64,000 nt of DNA from an uncultured virus (IMG/VR IMGVR_UViG_3300031787_000018). Its lineage: Duplodnaviria > Heunggongvirae > Uroviricota > Caudoviricetes. Shown one piece after another: positions 1,440 through 62,951 of the stretch. Position numbers and translations under genes: made by a program. A model generated the notes under the pieces. That model did no database searches. It had not been told where the DNA came from and saw only the letters and a list, made by a program, of their open reading frames with translations. The stretch is taken from IMG/VR virus record IMGVR_UViG_3300031787_000018, positions 62,001 to 126,000 of that record. One strand, written 5' to 3'. Numbering within the stretch: position 1 is the stretch's first letter; each line of letters starts with the position of its first letter.

Positions 1440-1580
1440 AATCGAAACGGTGAGACCGACAACAAAACTCAGACAGTAAGGTTAAGGAAAGATTCGAGTG
1501 AATCATGGAAATAATCGAGGACTGTAATTATAAGAAAGGGTCTCTATTGATTAATAGGAGGTAACCCGAAAGTTACCACA
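1440..1580 (+). ncRNA. Putative structured ncRNA upstream of the tRNA-like pair
   Basis: Non-coding; TTGACA..TAATAT upstream at about 1403-1431; hairpins GATTC-GAGT-GAATC, CTCTATT-GATT-AATAGGAG and GGTAAC-CCGAAA-GTTACC. Confidence 0.4.
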
Positions 1581-1583
1581 TAC

Positions 1584-1656
1584 GCGGAAGTAGTTTAACT
1601 ATTAGAACACAACACATCCTGTGTTGGGGTAACAGTGAAAATCTGATTCTTCTGCT
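1584..1656 (+). tRNA. Atypical tRNA-Gly(TCC)-like RNA
   Basis: Acceptor GCGGAAG/CTTCTGC with U73; anticodon stem CAACA/TGTTG with loop CATCCTG; no D-loop GG; T-loop TGAAAAT. Confidence 0.65.
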
Positions 1657-1665
1657 CTAATAAAC

Positions 1666-1735
1666 GCGGAGGTCGTATAATGTTAATATGTCGTACATCC
1701 TGTATGAAGATTGTGGACGAACCCACACTTCCGCT
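1666..1735 (+). tRNA. Atypical tRNA-Gly(TCC)-like RNA
   Basis: Acceptor GCGGAGG/CTTCCGC with U73; anticodon stem TCGTA/TATGA with the same CATCCTG loop; T-arm TGTGG-ACGAAC-CCACA. Confidence 0.65.
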
Positions 1736-1743
1736 CAACCCAT

Positions 1744-1772
1744 AACCCGATAATAAAATATCGGGTTTTTTT
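1744..1772 (+). terminator. Intrinsic terminator after the tRNA-like pair
   Basis: AACCCGATA-ATAAAA-TATCGGGTT followed by a T run. Confidence 0.8.
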
Positions 1773-1777
1773 ATACG

Positions 1778-2200
1778 ATGGAAAAATTAAAAGTAGGTGA
1801 TTTCGTTTCTTGTTTCTATAGTTTTAGAACTGGTACCGCTTACGGTAAAGTTTTAAAAATACATGATTTAAAAAATAATATAGATTGTGATGAATACGGT
1901 CCTATTATTACAGGTATGGGTGATGAGAATAGTAAACTTAAAGTAACCGTAAAAATATTAGGTTATGATATGGGTGAAGATTACGGTATTAACAGTTTAG
2001 GTGAAATTGTTGAAGATGTTGAAGAGACTAGGGAGTTGGATGTACATAAAATTTTCTACATTATAGATGAGAAACTAATTCGTGAAATGAGAATTGAGTG
2101 GGAGAATTTAATGAAAAAGAAGTTAGATTTCTTATATAAAAACATTAATAGGGATGTTTTGTCAGGCAGAAAAACCATCAAAGGGTTAAATATGACTTAA
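1778..2200 (+). CDS. Hypothetical protein (KVGD-start family)
   Basis: 140 aa ORF; its stop codon lies inside the degenerate first CRISPR repeat. Confidence 0.75.
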   Translation: MEKLKVGDFVSCFYSFRTGTAYGKVLKIHDLKNNIDCDEYGPIITGMGDENSKLKVTVKILGYDMGEDYGINSLGEIVEDVEETRELDVHKIFYIIDEKLIREMRIEWENLMKKKLDFLYKNINRDVLSGRKTIKGLNMT

Positions 2201-2429
2201 TAAACCTTTCGTTTATGGGTCTCCCACAACCAAGGTTTAAAAAGGGATCTTAAAAAATGGACTGTAGACACCTTTCGTTTATGGGTCTCCCACAACAAAC
2301 TTGCGGTGGAGTGGGGAGTTAAATTTAGCTGTAGACACCTTTCGTTTATGGGTCTCCCACAACAGTTCATCAACCGTACCGTCAATTGGTGAAGCTGTAG
2401 ACACCTTTCGTTTATGGGTCTCCCACAAC
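2195..2429 (+). CRISPR. CRISPR mini-array: 4 x 36-bp repeats and 3 spacers (30/31/30 nt), type VI-B-like repeat, no cas genes in the window
   Basis: Repeat GCTGTAGACACCTTTCGTTTATGGGTCTCCCACAAC at 2328-2363 and 2394-2429, one mismatch at 2261-2296, 5'-degenerate at 2195-2230; three unique spacers; strand inferred from resemblance to Cas13b repeats. Confidence 0.85.
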
Positions 2430-2737
2430 ATATTAACACATATTTTCTGAAATTCTGGGTAAGAAACCCCCATTTTTTGACATTTTTTCCAGATTTTACC
2501 ATAATCAACATATAAAACCGGTTTCTGATCACCAGTATCTATATTATCTAAAAATAAAAAATCCCCATTTTTATCAATATATTTTGTCCATCCTGGTTGT
2601 TTTTTTGATCCTACCAAGTTACATTCTGATAATTTATCATAAATAAATTTTTCTGCCTCAGATAATTCTGGAATATCATCAAACCAATCTAAATTTTCTA
2701 TGGATTCTTTTAATATTTTTTTAATTAAATTCCTCAT
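2279..2737 (-). CDS. MRNLIKKILKE-leader protein whose C-terminus is read from the CRISPR array
   Basis: Leader shared with many paralogs; ATATTTAT at 2743-2750 on the minus strand; the repeat translates as LWETHKRKVSTA twice. Confidence 0.8.
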   Translation of the reverse strand: MRNLIKKILKESIENLDWFDDIPELSEAEKFIYDKLSECNLVGSKKQPGWTKYIDKNGDFLFLDNIDTGDQKPVLYVDYGKIWKKCQKMGVSYPEFQKICVNMLWETHKRKVSTASPIDGTVDELLWETHKRKVSTAKFNSPLHRKFVVGDP

Positions 2738-2794
2738 ATCATATAAATATTTTGTATATTTGTAAAAATTAAAATAAATAGACCTCTCTAAGAG

Positions 2795-3906: not shown

Positions 3907-4311
3907 ATGGAAAAATTTAAAGTGGGTGATGTCGTTAGATTGACCAATGGTTTGACTGCAAAGGTTTTAAATAAACCTGGTACTTTTATGTCAAACGGTT
4001 CTTATGAAATAATGTTGGTGGAGTATACTATGAACGGTAGGATTTTACCTATAAAAGACAGTAAAAAATGGATTAAACCTGACGAAATTGCCTATAGTTT
4101 AACACAAACTGACACACATGAACCTCTTGAAAATTACATGGAAATTATCTATAACGGTCAAGAAATAGTCTTCATACCAAAAGATATTAGTAAAGTAGAA
4201 TTGGTTAAAGATGAAAACGGTTTTCAAACAATCAGACTCCATTATGAAGGTCACATACATGGTAGTATAAACATTCTAATTGGTGATAATAAAATAGAAA
4301 ATAATGGGTAA
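3907..4311 (+). CDS. Hypothetical protein (KVGD-start family)
   Basis: 134 aa ORF in operon context. Confidence 0.7.
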   Translation: MEKFKVGDVVRLTNGLTAKVLNKPGTFMSNGSYEIMLVEYTMNGRILPIKDSKKWIKPDEIAYSLTQTDTHEPLENYMEIIYNGQEIVFIPKDISKVELVKDENGFQTIRLHYEGHIHGSINILIGDNKIENNG

Positions 4312-5644: not shown

Positions 5645-6841
5645 ATGATGAATACTATCCGTAAAATTATTAAAGAACAATTACTCACTGAAAAGGCTGG
5701 AATATCGGAAATTGTTAGAAAATGGGCTACAATATTAAAAAATGAAGTAGACGAAAATTTAAAAATTCATAGAGAAGAACAACACAAAAAATATTCCCAA
5801 AAAACAAAGGGTATTTCATACCCATCCATGAGTGATATTTTTGATGTAAATTTAGATAAGCCTGTAAACCCTGAAGATGATCCTTTTTATTGGGAGGATG
5901 ACACTAGTAAAGGAAAAAATTATTATAAGAAAGGTTATGATGATTATATGAGAGAGGATTATAGGTCTAGACAGAGTTACAGTCAAATGTACGAACCTTT
6001 AGCCGAGGTTGTGGTATACGGTGAGGATTACCCCAAAGAATACGAAGAATTTTCAGTAGATGTTTGGGTTCTAACAAATAGTAATCGTATTGAGTATGAC
6101 CATTATGAATCTGGTTATGATGAAGATGGTTATTATATTGTTTACCTTAATATACCTTTAGCTGCCATGAGTATGTCCACTTTTATTCATGAAATTAAAC
6201 ATGCTTACGATGATTGGAATAGGATGCGAACCGGTGGTAAACCAATAAGAGATAGTTGGGAAATTAAAAATATATACACAAAAGATTTTGAAAAGTTAAT
6301 ACTAGGTGCTTCGGTAAACTTTCCACAATTGGGTCCTATAATTCGTAATTATTATATGGGTTCTAAATTGGAAACACCTGCTTACTTGGAAAACGAATAT
6401 GACAACGCAATGGTAAACTATCAAGATATTGGTAAAAAATTGATGAATTTTAAAGCATCTACTTTTATGACCAAGGAAGGTGAACCGGCTAGAGGTTTGG
6501 GGGATGAGTTTAAAAAACTACAAAGTTACGATATACCTTTATTCAAAAAATTTGATAATGTTTTAGATTTTTTAAGGTATACAGAAAAATATTTCAACCA
6601 AAGAGGTGAAGACATTTTTAGACGAGTTAACAAAATGAGATACGTTCACGGTTTACCGGCTAAACAAGAACCTAAAAAATGGGAACCAAGTACAAAAACA
6701 CAAAAAACAACAAGTACGAAGGGTACACAACAAGACCTTTTTAGTTCAAGTGAAGATTTTGATGATTGGAAATATTCTAGAGAAAGGGGTTGGTATTATG
6801 CTGGTAAAGGTGGTGAAGATTTTAATGATTATTATTACTAA
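5645..6841 (+). CDS. Leader-bearing HExxH zinc-metallopeptidase-like protein
   Basis: IRKIIKEQLLTE leader; FIHEIKHAY with a downstream LETPAYLE; paralog of 7471-8253. Confidence 0.7.
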   Translation: MMNTIRKIIKEQLLTEKAGISEIVRKWATILKNEVDENLKIHREEQHKKYSQKTKGISYPSMSDIFDVNLDKPVNPEDDPFYWEDDTSKGKNYYKKGYDDYMREDYRSRQSYSQMYEPLAEVVVYGEDYPKEYEEFSVDVWVLTNSNRIEYDHYESGYDEDGYYIVYLNIPLAAMSMSTFIHEIKHAYDDWNRMRTGGKPIRDSWEIKNIYTKDFEKLILGASVNFPQLGPIIRNYYMGSKLETPAYLENEYDNAMVNYQDIGKKLMNFKASTFMTKEGEPARGLGDEFKKLQSYDIPLFKKFDNVLDFLRYTEKYFNQRGEDIFRRVNKMRYVHGLPAKQEPKKWEPSTKTQKTTSTKGTQQDLFSSSEDFDDWKYSRERGWYYAGKGGEDFNDYYY

Positions 6842-61244: not shown

Positions 61245-62951
61245 TTAATCACCCCACACCCATTTTTTATTACCACAATCCCAAATAATGTTGTAACCAC
61301 GTTCATACATTATTTGTTTTTCAGTCTTATTCGGATCATAACCATCTTTAATTAATTTATCTTTCCTAAAATTATATCTGTGCATTCTAACCAAGTCTTT
61401 GAAATACCAATAATTTAATTCGGTATTTTTTAAAAATTTAAAGCCCAATTTTTCATATAAACCACCATCAAAATACCTGTTATCGGAATAAGATACGACA
61501 TTTTTTGGTTTATAATTTTGTATGAAATGTCCGAACAATTTTGAAGCCCCACCAACTATTTTTGTGTTTAATTTATTACAAAATCTTAACATCTCATATT
61601 CATAATTGTTGTTACCCACACCTGAACGATTACCGAATGTCATAACAGAAACCAATTCGTCTTTATAATATAAACCCAAATTTATAGACGCGTTAACAGA
61701 CCCTTGAATGTGGTTATTACCCAAAAATTTCGATGATTCTTTATTGGTTATTGTTTTTATAACACACTTTCTTGCGAATATATTGGTATCGAATATGTTT
61801 AAATTAGCTTTTATAATAGATAATACAATATCTTTTTTAAATAACCACTCATCTTCAAAAATATGTAATAGTTTAATATTTTTATCTTTACATAATAACG
61901 TCTTATTTATGTGATATGTTTTACTTTTATTTATTTCACTATGCCAATACAATCCATCATATTCTATGGCTAAATTTTTCTGCGGTATGAAAATATCCAA
62001 TTCACAACCACCGAGTATCTTTTTATTATTAATCTCAACTAACATCCCAGTCAAATTCTCTATATAACTAACAATATCTCTATGTGGTTTGGTGTAGTTT
62101 GATCCGTTAAGTGGGAAACAATTGATGCATATTTCATACCCCAACCTATTTCTTTGATTAAATAAATAATTGTCTATTTTAAAAATTTTGTCACATTTAT
62201 CACATTTTAATGTTAATACTTTATTTTCGTAATCAATAAAAGTATACCCACTGAAATTATTTAATTTATCTATTATTTTGTTTTTAAAAATCACATTTTT
62301 AAACTCTTCACTTTGTGAGTAGTTCTCTACATTAAATTTTGTTAAATTAGTTTTTTTAGATTTTTCTTTAACTTCTTCTAACTGAAAAGGGTTTGATACG
62401 CCGTATTTTTTAATAAGATTCTCTTTTCTTAAATTCTTTATATCGTCAGAATACCAATGGTGGGTAAAACCGTATCTTTCTAAATTAGTTTTTTTTACTT
62501 TATTTTTTATTTCATCATTATGTAAACTACATGTTACACCATACTTTTCTAAATTAGTTTTTTTTACTTTATTTTTTATTTCATCATTTCTTAAAGGACT
62601 TGTTACACCATATTTTTTTACATTAGTTTCCTTTATTTTATTTTTAGTATTTTGGTTATTTACACCACATTTTATAGAACAGTTTTTATTATAACCCTTT
62701 TTTAGTGAGATAAATTTCACATCATTTACCCCACAAACCTCACATTTAGGTGGTTTGTTAGTATTATTTATATATAAATAAATTTTCTCTTTAAAAGTTA
62801 AGCTGTCTTCTTTATTGAAGTTTATTATTTTTGAGTATAAATCGTAGTTATTGTCCCGTAACCAACTTTCTCTAACCCTAAGACCGTTATTATTTTCAGT
62901 AAAATAATCCAGTAAATTTATATTATCCATATTGTATGACTTATTTATCAA
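61245..62951 (-). CDS. Putative free-standing endonuclease with K.TN..KYG repeats and a Vsr/DUF559-like domain
   Basis: About five K.TN(L/V)(E/K)(K/R)YG-type repeats; ELDIFIP..NLAIEYDGLYWHS..K...C..LLHIFEDEW; C-terminal NHIQG..RFC..GGASKL domain. Confidence 0.75.
   Translation of the reverse strand: MINKSYNMDNINLLDYFTENNNGLRVRESWLRDNNYDLYSKIINFNKEDSLTFKEKIYLYINNTNKPPKCEVCGVNDVKFISLKKGYNKNCSIKCGVNNQNTKNKIKETNVKKYGVTSPLRNDEIKNKVKKTNLEKYGVTCSLHNDEIKNKVKKTNLERYGFTHHWYSDDIKNLRKENLIKKYGVSNPFQLEEVKEKSKKTNLTKFNVENYSQSEEFKNVIFKNKIIDKLNNFSGYTFIDYENKVLTLKCDKCDKIFKIDNYLFNQRNRLGYEICINCFPLNGSNYTKPHRDIVSYIENLTGMLVEINNKKILGGCELDIFIPQKNLAIEYDGLYWHSEINKSKTYHINKTLLCKDKNIKLLHIFEDEWLFKKDIVLSIIKANLNIFDTNIFARKCVIKTITNKESSKFLGNNHIQGSVNASINLGLYYKDELVSVMTFGNRSGVGNNNYEYEMLRFCNKLNTKIVGGASKLFGHFIQNYKPKNVVSYSDNRYFDGGLYEKLGFKFLKNTELNYWYFKDLVRMHRYNFRKDKLIKDGYDPNKTEKQIMYERGYNIIWDCGNKKWVWGD

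Follow-up and report, generated by a model that had tools for sequence, protein, structure and literature searches.

Introduction

CRISPR mini-arrays that have no cas genes of their own are carried by archaeal viruses, and in the omega-RNAs of TnpB and IscB the 3' end of an open reading frame (ORF) also forms part of the guide-RNA scaffold. Here we describe a phage locus that is comparable with both. In a 64,000-nucleotide (nt) stretch of an uncultured tailed phage (positions 62,001 to 126,000 of IMG/VR record IMGVR_UViG_3300031787_000018; the whole stretch is hereafter called the window), the last codons of a conserved protein gene on the minus strand double as the first repeat in a short CRISPR array. 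The TnpB and IscB proteins are nucleases that use the RNA, and their systems have neither a repeat-spacer array nor spacer acquisition, unlike the locus considered here.

Cas-less arrays are also described on the genomes of huge phages (PMC7162821), where they are short, come without adaptation or interference genes, presumably make use of host Cas proteins, and can have spacers that match other phages or host genes; in these respects the array of the window is of the same kind. It differs from the known viral arrays in that its first repeat lies within a conserved gene that replaces the leader and its repeat appears to be of the Cas13b type. Moreover, its repeat family matches no host array found, and its modules are multiplied, in some phages in tandem.

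A second group of relatives is formed by the RNA anti-CRISPRs (Racrs) and solitary repeat units (SRUs; PMC10651486), which are likewise phage-encoded repeat mimics without cas genes and can tie up Cas proteins. In that survey, all CRISPR types were found among the SRUs except type VI. Racrs are described there as non-coding and as lying directly behind a promoter, whereas the repeat here is translated and is followed by real spacers that turn over. They are also defined by at least 90% identity to a known host repeat; here no such close repeat was found and the repeat lies inside an ORF. The SRU finder masks confident ORFs before the search, so that a gene-internal repeat would be missed.

The third relative is the type VI-B array itself. 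As reported (PMC13187072), its CRISPR RNA (crRNA) has the order guide-then-repeat, Cas13b cuts at the 3' end of the repeat, and spacers enter at the first repeat. Together with its upstream sequence, this first repeat can give rise to an ‘extraneous’ crRNA (ecrRNA) that sequesters Cas13b, and an expressed ecrRNA cut phage defence about 1000-fold. The locus of the window is alike in its guide-repeat order, in a first repeat plus upstream sequence that could be used in this way, and in putative acquisition at the same repeat. In bacteria a leader-repeat hairpin prevents the ecrRNA (PMC13187072); here the ‘leader’ is a translated gene and the folding prediction is mixed. A VI-B array can also acquire spacers in trans by means of a II-C Cas1, taking phage and host DNA about evenly (PMC8092290).

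Finally, the Cracr arrays of viral crRNA-like regulatory RNAs (bioRxiv 10.1101/2024.10.29.618823) are phage mini-arrays that compete for Cas proteins, often together with a co-encoded anti-CRISPR protein. They are described for DNA-targeting types (under the headings V-A, I-E and I-F) and with no gene-embedded repeat, and the main text makes no mention of type VI, VI-B or Cas13. Our literature search, which covered articles apart from their supplements, gave no description of a CRISPR repeat that doubles as a conserved protein C-terminus across a phage family.

Results

The end of the gene is the first repeat of the array

The array consists of four direct 36-nt repeats at 2195–2429, with a spacing of 66, 67 and 66 nt and spacers of 30, 31 and 30 nt. 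The 26-nt core of the repeat has 4 copies in the window against 0.00 expected, and none of 100 shuffled sequences reached 4. Read on the minus strand, repeat 1 (GTTGTGGGAGACCCATAAACGAAAGGTGTCTACAGC, 2394–2429) is dual-coded and gives residues 104–115 of the protein (LWETHKRKVSTA), at the end of its last predicted helix. It is followed by spacer 1 (30 nt, 2364–2393; the newest by position), which the ORF reads as SPIDGTVDEL, by repeat 2 (2328–2363), which is identical to repeat 1, and by spacer 2 (31 nt, 2297–2327), which shifts the frame of the ORF. Repeat 3 (2261–2296) has one mismatch, in its last base, and contains the stop codon of the ORF at 2279–2281. Beyond it lie spacer 3 (30 nt, 2231–2260; the oldest by position) and a terminal degenerate repeat (2195–2230), whose five mismatches are all in its 3' third and which is overlapped by the stop codon of the convergent gene at 1778–2200 (+).

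The ORF (2279–2737, minus strand) has 152 amino acids (aa) and ends in ...ICVNM-LWETHKRKVSTA-SPIDGTVDEL-LWETHKRKVSTA-KFNSPLHRKF, followed by VVGDP and the stop within the third repeat. In fact, the last 12 conserved codons of the gene are the first 36-nt repeat of the four-repeat, three-spacer array. The first-pass annotation, which was made from the letters of the window alone, had already described an ORF that enters the array without a stop, holds its frame over 66 nt and loses it at the 31-nt spacer, and we obtained the same reading and the same peptide. The period of 66 nt is simply the Cas13b-type format of 36 + 30 nt. The same annotation had also stated that the array has no non-coding leader, and this is correct: the gene body (codons 1–103, 2430–2737, minus strand) sits where the CRISPR leader would be, and the coding sequence of this conserved gene runs directly up to the first repeat and on into it. 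The sole non-coding DNA is the 57 nt before the ATG (2738–2794).

That the minus-strand ORF is a real gene, as had been supposed, is borne out by its relatives, by a confident fold and by conserved residues whose codons vary synonymously. We searched 1.84 billion cluster representatives exhaustively and obtained, at E ≤ 0.001, 38 relatives, whose matches nearly always stop about 10 residues short of the protein end and among which N-terminal fusions of 216–571 aa occur. A structure prediction had been proposed at the outset; AlphaFold2, with a 21-row alignment, gave a predicted local distance difference test (pLDDT) score of 85 and a compact alpha/beta domain of helix, four strands and two helices at residues 23–114 (block means 79–97). 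The last helix (93–108) takes in residues encoded by the repeat, and residues 1–22 are unstructured and of low confidence. Neither the ORF nor its paralog (see below) has a family in Pfam, PHROGs, PADLOC or NCBIfam. Foldseek against PDB gave nothing at E ≤ 0.001, a wide VIA-align comparison reached a Z of 4.4 at best and pointed to no clear match, the profile of the family matched PDB sequences only at E ≥ 0.27, and ESM Atlas gave no usable match.

Conservation of the gene-array fusion

Among the database homologs, 20 extend to the C-terminus, and all of these have the ending ...ML[YWE]E[TIM][HYF][KN]RKV.T and then go on into unrelated tails, and some of them re-read the second repeat in frame. 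We searched the linkage in both directions. Starting from the protein, 24 of 24 viral loci carry at least one further copy of the gene's last 36 nt, 65–67 nt downstream (2–5 repeats). Starting from the repeat only, a two-copy core pattern gave 40 loci with 42 arrays (36 distinct) in metagenome contigs, and each of the 42 arrays has an in-frame upstream ORF that matches the hidden Markov model (HMM) of the family. Homologs of the array gene consistently end in arrays, as the first-pass annotation had proposed to examine.

The modules are also multiplied within genomes. The same phage has, at a distance of 12 kb, a paralog of 326 aa that closes with a variant repeat, followed by one spacer and a degenerate repeat; one phage fragment returned six loci, some of them gene-array-gene-array tandems, and some phages have many modules. 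The paralog genes are near-identical over a core of about 100 nt (2509–2605 of the window and 1545–1700 of locus L005), though they are 83% identical overall, which suggests gene conversion between two paralogous module genes.

A further search, which used distant homologs, added two more array-bearing loci (L199 and L201). The homolog L208 is without any downstream repeat. L212, a homolog of 34% identity, is fused to a different repeat, which is present in three copies; its last codons (LGEHYNLRGVTA), in the same frame, make up the first copy. In a maximum-likelihood tree with midpoint root, built on few columns and with some long branches, L212 stands on one side and all others stand on the opposite side, while L208 falls within the array-bearing genes (supports 96/83 and 94/76). 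Because the array-bearing L212 lies on the other side of the root and L208 is placed among array-bearers, the gene-array fusion looks ancestral and L208 looks like a loss. An origin of the repeat from coding sequence, which had also been suggested, is not favoured, since arrays occur on both sides of the tree and the Cas13b-type repeat of the deep branch is the more canonical one.

Two loci show variants of the repeat itself. In L024 (1890–2057) the translated first repeat keeps ACC CAT and the later repeats read GGTTCAT, and in L199 (1500–1640) the gene itself reads MVHKRKV with the GGTTCAT variant; repeat variants therefore move between coding and non-coding copies.

The repeat resembles those of Cas13b arrays

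The repeat of the window has a length of 36 nt with spacers of about 30 nt, a GTTG start, an ACA[GA]C end and a GAAAGGT motif. On species-representative genomes we ran a generic pattern that asks for two copies of GTTG-N16-GAANGGTA-N3-ACAAC; one phage variant conforms to it. As a result, 96 loci were retrieved, and among the titles listed all belong to Bacteroidota or their allies in the Fibrobacteres–Chlorobi–Bacteroidetes (FCB) group, for example Segatella buccae ATCC 33574 and Flavobacterium columnare. Cas13b (NF038190) adjoins the array in all three of these loci that were tested, and the Cas13b HMM matches 51 of the 96 bacterial stretches, many of which are cut by contig ends. On the cas13b strand the Segatella buccae repeat reads GTTGCATCTGCC...ACAAC. 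The pattern has 16 fixed positions, of which the window repeat agrees with 14 and the variant of L025 with all 16, and the L212 repeat shares 30 positions with a Chryseobacterium repeat, with two shifts of 1 nt.

In the bacterial arrays the GTTG-upstream side holds a conserved leader and the first repeat, which is intact, and the repeats at the opposite end are degenerate. The same polarity is seen in the gene and arrays of the phages, the direction of transcription being taken from the gene. Judged by length, ends, GAAAGGT motif, spacers of about 30 nt and polarity, the phage repeats appear to be Cas13b-type (VI-B-like), and the window repeat seems to form a family of its own apart from the bacterial ones.

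Dual constraint on the first repeat

A stop codon in the frame of the gene is present in 74 of 75 distinct bacterial repeats (TGA at positions 20–22 in 72, a stop at 5–7 in 49), against 0 of 38 distinct phage repeats. In the window family the bacterial TGA is replaced by CGA, and L212 escapes the TGA by a one-base register shift. On this comparison the phage repeat is probably a stop-free, translatable derivative of a Cas13b-type repeat.

The codons of repeat 1 were counted in the 24 protein-derived loci and are ACC in 24, CAT in 22 and CAC in 2, AAA in 24, CGA in 24 and AAG in 23. Just upstream of the repeat the codons of conserved G, L and C residues vary synonymously; this upstream table includes loci selected by pattern, and the repeat-codon counts rest on the 24 protein-derived ones. 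The array-less L208 keeps the peptide MTHKRKV, spelled ACT CAT AAA AGA AAA GTT. Repeat 1 is constrained at both levels, and its synonymous sites are frozen only where the array is attached.

Spacer turnover and foreign matches

The 48 distinct modules hold 85 spacers, with lengths of 28 nt (1), 29 nt (12), 30 nt (63), 31 nt (8) and 33 nt (1), and their terminal repeats are degenerate in the 3' part. Spacers differ between orthologous contexts that have their terminal repeat and their downstream gene or terminator in common (L146/L181/L180; L145 vs L150; L151/L157/L159/L167; L148 vs L175; L163+/L179 vs L170+). Two pairs are informative about the order of gain. L155 has two extra gene-proximal spacers when compared with L014, and the shared spacer is distal in both; L015/L149 have one extra spacer when compared with L025, and the shared spacer is second there and first of two in L025. 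Shared spacers at the distal end are the pattern that leader-end acquisition would leave.

Spacer 1 has a 30/30 match on other RNA-library contigs (576 and 627 nt; records 20 and 22 of library X17) with non-repeat flanks, and it also matches at loose ends in the RNA libraries X10, X16, X17 and X18. Spacer 2 has a 30/31 match inside a 5,055-nt contig (depth 22.3) of library X18 and matches at loose ends in X10. These foreign contigs, from freshwater RNA-library runs of four studies, match one spacer each and their flanks are not repeats. By eye, spacer 2 and its flanks continue an open frame on the window plus strand, and the context of spacer 1 is open on both strands. In its motif, the frame around spacer 2 resembles a phytoene-desaturase-type oxidoreductase dependent on flavin adenine dinucleotide (FAD), which is a putative assignment. 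Since this frame is on the plus strand, a minus-strand crRNA would be antisense to the message. No shared motif was seen by eye beside the two protospacers, to which, with n = 2, we give no weight.

The phage's own 318 kb gave no match to any spacer, and spacers 1–3 match only the phage's own record in IMG/VR. Nor did the array's spacers match in five Flavobacteriia genomes, and a comparison of all 85 spacers with 1.46 Mb of collected DNA gave none but one weak match. Some candidates were set aside. A 22/23 spacer match in L091 is AT-rich and was judged to be chance. Twelve spacer matches in 401 genomes of one Flavobacterium-like genus have per-genome E values of 0.001–0.01 and were read as chance-level; the best of them lies in an aldehyde dehydrogenase gene, with flanks unlike the loose ends of the RNA contigs.

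Absence of cas genes from the phages

Cas13b (NF038190) was found in none of four phage records, including the 96%-complete 318-kb genome, with a positive control of 2/2, and the Cas13b HMM matched none of the 104 phage-side loci (699,498 bases). Cas1 was likewise found in none of the four phage records. A scan of 39 of the 45 phage ORFs of at least 500 aa, the other six of which cross locus borders, gave no Cas family. Moreover, 9–10 large ORFs without a family gave nothing in PADLOC, NCBIfam and PHROGs, and two of them were also compared with PDB sequences. An anti-repeat or trans-activating (tracr) sequence in the phage was sought and only chance-level matches were obtained (E ≥ 24). As the phage has no Cas13b, its crRNAs would therefore have to engage a host enzyme in trans.

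Start of the gene and its N-terminal peptide

The motif ATATTTAT stands at 2743–2750 (minus strand), 5 nt from the ATG of the array gene, and is likely a phage promoter element. The full phage genome has 155 copies of it, 76 of which lie at most 25 nt before the ATG of an ORF of at least 50 aa; these starts include the array gene, its paralog and the prohead-protease gene. The related count for GATATTTATA is 8 copies in the window against 0.99 expected. A scan for sigma-70 promoters was at chance level (6 found, 6.2 expected).

The first 11 codons of the gene (2705–2737, minus strand) read MRNLIKKILKE, a candidate T4-type capsid-targeting sequence or propeptide. A start of this kind occurs in 20 ORF rows (19 genes) of the full phage genome, and the form M[KR][ND]LI[KR]KILKE opens about 19 otherwise unrelated genes, in the window for example that at 5645–6841 (+). 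The motif and the peptide had both been pointed out from the sequence of the window, and these counts leave both standing as real. Together they look like a promoter class and a capsid-targeting-like propeptide of a large set of proteins.

The cleavage site of gp21-type proteases is L/I-x-E. The phage encodes such a prohead protease (Peptidase_S77, E = 6.9e-31) and has a short shared start peptide with an end of the L/I-x-E type. For T4, a capsid targeting sequence with an ‘LIE’ logo is reported, in which residues 8 and 10 have roles, as well as internal proteins that are ejected with the DNA, some of which counter host defence (PMC9026906). The peptide common to 19 genes, the disordered residues 1–22 and the gp21-type protease suggest, by analogy, that the protein may be packaged and ejected like the T4 internal proteins. 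The likeness lies in an N-terminal peptide of about 10 residues common to otherwise unrelated proteins of a T4-like phage and in the protease; the T4 peptide differs in sequence, and packaging and cleavage are putative here.

The phage genome and other observations in the window

The genome that hosts the gene is that of a T4-like freshwater jumbo phage. The window belongs to a 132-kb virus record, which is a circular permutation of a 317,983-bp IMG/VR record (96% complete) at 99.999% identity. The T4-like marks are a Gp23 major capsid protein, a Gp20 portal, a family-B DNA polymerase and the gp21-type prohead protease; a SprB-repeat protein is also encoded, and the G+C content is about 29%. 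Near-identical sequence occurs in runs from 16 studies, mostly labelled as freshwater, and six of the runs are RNA libraries. GenBank phages gave no match to the array, and Rfam and a tRNA scan gave no match in the window.

Several further features were observed. An intergenic stretch at 1440–1775 (+) has higher G+C than its surroundings and is a candidate phage non-coding RNA: its predicted fold of −84.6 kcal/mol (z = −3.2) beats 100 of 100 shuffles, a terminator-like hairpin at 1744–1767 ends it, an RNA-library contig at 1457–1746 coincides with it, and a search of Rfam at E ≤ 1 still gives nothing for it. Two small genes, of 140 and 134 aa, are 90% identical in their first 30 nt (1778–1807 and 3907–3936, +), and their starts, MEKLKVGD and MEKFKVGD, mark another paralog family with a common start. 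A 69-nt tandem repeat (2.4 copies, 88% matches) is found at 62477–62645. Elsewhere in the phage there are a TROVE-domain (Ro60-like) protein (L032:3170–4777, +) and a 769-aa protein with a poly(A) polymerase/CCA-adding head domain (L038:15699–18005, −), the latter beginning with the shared N-terminal peptide. Intein/LAGLIDADG homing-endonuclease modules split large ORFs (L038:6549–9704, +, and L045:2707–5697, +), one of which is a ribonucleotide reductase.

Discussion

We prefer the reading, to which we give somewhat better than even chances, that the locus is a phage-borne, cas-less mini-array of the Cas13b kind (VI-B) in which the gene serves as the leader, and that host adaptation enzymes feed it and it acts on the Cas13b of the host, by way of decoy or hijack. 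It starts from the architecture of gene and array, their conservation in both directions, the dual constraint on the first repeat, the turnover of the spacers, the foreign protospacers and the lack of cas genes in the phages. From there we infer transcription through the array, the use of host Cas1/Cas2 and Cas13b, and a benefit to the phage. The ATATTTAT motif would drive the gene, and transcription would continue into the array. Spacers would be placed directly behind the gene, at the first repeat, by adaptation enzymes that the host supplies in trans, and with each insertion the unstructured C-terminal tail would incidentally change. From the transcript the phage would obtain one fixed ‘extraneous’ crRNA, made of the last 30 nt of the gene and repeat 1, and variable spacer crRNAs. 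These crRNAs may soak up host Cas13b, as a decoy similar to an RNA anti-CRISPR or an ecrRNA, or may redirect it to transcripts of the host or of rivals. We lean to the decoy, because in minimal two-repeat modules repeat 1 is the sole intact repeat.

Several points weigh against the mini-array reading. First, as to the repeat, the nearest bacterial Cas13b-type repeat differs from that of the window at 10 of 36 positions, so that recognition by any Cas13b is putative. A degenerate pattern of all phage repeat variants gave 0 loci when it was run on 185,579 species genomes; the repeat family turned up in no bacterial or cas-linked array, and every metagenome array is fused to the gene. Second, as to folding, the isolated window repeat folds at −9.7 kcal/mol (z = −1.9), but the phage hairpins are weaker (−2.9 to −9.7 kcal/mol) than the bacterial ones (mostly −8 to −14 kcal/mol), and covariation in the hairpin is none beyond shuffles. 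When the bacterial loci are folded in context, the median probability of the canonical pairs is 0.00 in repeat 1 and 0.25 in repeat 2, which reproduces the published suppression of the ecrRNA; repeat 1 of the phages is mixed or bimodal, with a median of 0.03, 10 of 32 at ≥0.7 and the window at 0.73. Third, as to function, a decoy needs no real, turning-over spacers, and a hijack that activates the collateral RNase of Cas13b could hurt the phage. Finally, the polarised gain of spacers rests on two pairs, in which loss by recombination could mimic it, and the RNA-library data are contigs that show presence and not transcription, strand or processing; they break at the repeats, and as no piece bridges gene, array and neighbours, co-transcription is not shown by them.

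It is also conceivable that the arrays are neutral, that is, that the 3' end of the gene resembles a leader-repeat junction at which host Cas1/Cas2 mis-integrate spacers with no function for the phage. We think this unlikely. The phages have no cas genes, VI-B arrays acquire spacers in trans, with host DNA freely taken up (PMC8092290), the spacers have no frame or stop bias and, by eye, the two protospacer contexts have no common flank, all of which would fit. However, arrays are present in all 24 protein-found loci as well as in L199, L201 and L212, with the single loss in L208, and they appear ancestral on the tree; repeat 1 has frozen synonymous sites only in genes that carry an array, every stop in the gene's frame has been purged from the repeat, and modules have multiplied per genome. 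The conservation, the frozen sites, the purged stops and the multiplication point to a maintained function.

Another reading, which the first-pass annotation had also named, is a self-contained protein-plus-guide module, in which the repeat RNA would be bound, and the spacers put to use, by the small protein or by some other phage protein of unknown family, independently of host Cas13b. The linkage of gene and array in both directions, a repeat family that lies next to no cas gene anywhere searched, the basic C-terminus (HKRKV), a fold with no clear relative in the structural searches and several large phage ORFs without a family are in its favour. It is nevertheless doubtful. A domain of about 90 residues without nuclease-like features would be a poor effector, the Cas13b-type motifs and polarity kept in the repeat are hard to explain without Cas13b, new spacers would still require Cas1/Cas2 in phages that have no Cas1, and the genome has no anti-repeat or tracr-like match.

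We likewise hold it to be improbable that gene and array form a two-part anti-Cas13b device with a built-in sensor, or that the small protein is itself the partner of the guides in a new minimal RNA-guided system. As a sensor, the protein ejected from the capsid would meet Cas13b at once, and the transcript would give the fixed decoy crRNA and more crRNAs. A cut by Cas13b at repeat 1 would sever the ORF from its stop codon, and translation and RNA processing would therefore be mutually exclusive readouts of active Cas13b.

The lead idea of the first-pass annotation was a different one: acquisition-driven diversification of the protein, with an array that serves to renew the C-terminal tails and with spacers that preserve the frame and are depleted in stops. 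The newest spacer does encode the tail, tails differ between otherwise near-identical genes, and 36 + 30 = 66 nt holds the frame. One part of the idea stands, as each insertion at the first repeat would alter the tail. The part that concerns selection is largely refuted by the statistics: in-frame stops occur in 12 of 44 first spacers, compared with 15/44 and 24/44 in the other two frames and 13/35 in later spacers in the same frame, and 22 of the 85 spacers are not of 30 nt and break the frame. The tails range from 3 to 64 aa, apart from one read-through of 327 aa, and those of 3–5 aa are common; moreover, 30 nt is an ordinary VI-B spacer length and the fold ends within repeat 1. Since in-frame stops are not depleted, the rewriting of tails is better seen as a by-product, and we consider diversification very improbable. 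That the element is not CRISPR at all but another phage element with chance spacing (a terminator, a recombination site or a gene-end duplication) is scarcely credible, because, although there is no cas gene nearby and no covariation in the hairpin, the 48 distinct modules have fixed 36-nt repeats with unrelated spacers of 28–33 nt, a degenerate terminal repeat, spacer turnover, exact spacer matches on foreign contigs and motifs in common with Cas13b repeats.

With the mini-array, a repeat or array family of the Cas13b type would be reported from viruses for the first time. It is a natural experiment in dual coding, in which the stops present in 74 of 75 bacterial repeats have been purged and synonymous sites freeze only while the array is attached. 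For the detection of such elements this means that pipelines which mask ORFs first, or which call CRISPR arrays only between genes, will miss repeats embedded in genes. That spacers turn over on a lytic jumbo phage which has no Cas1 implies that, in the course of infection, the adaptation enzymes of the host write into phage genomes, and the arrangement probably lets this phage family exploit or jam the CRISPR machinery of its hosts.

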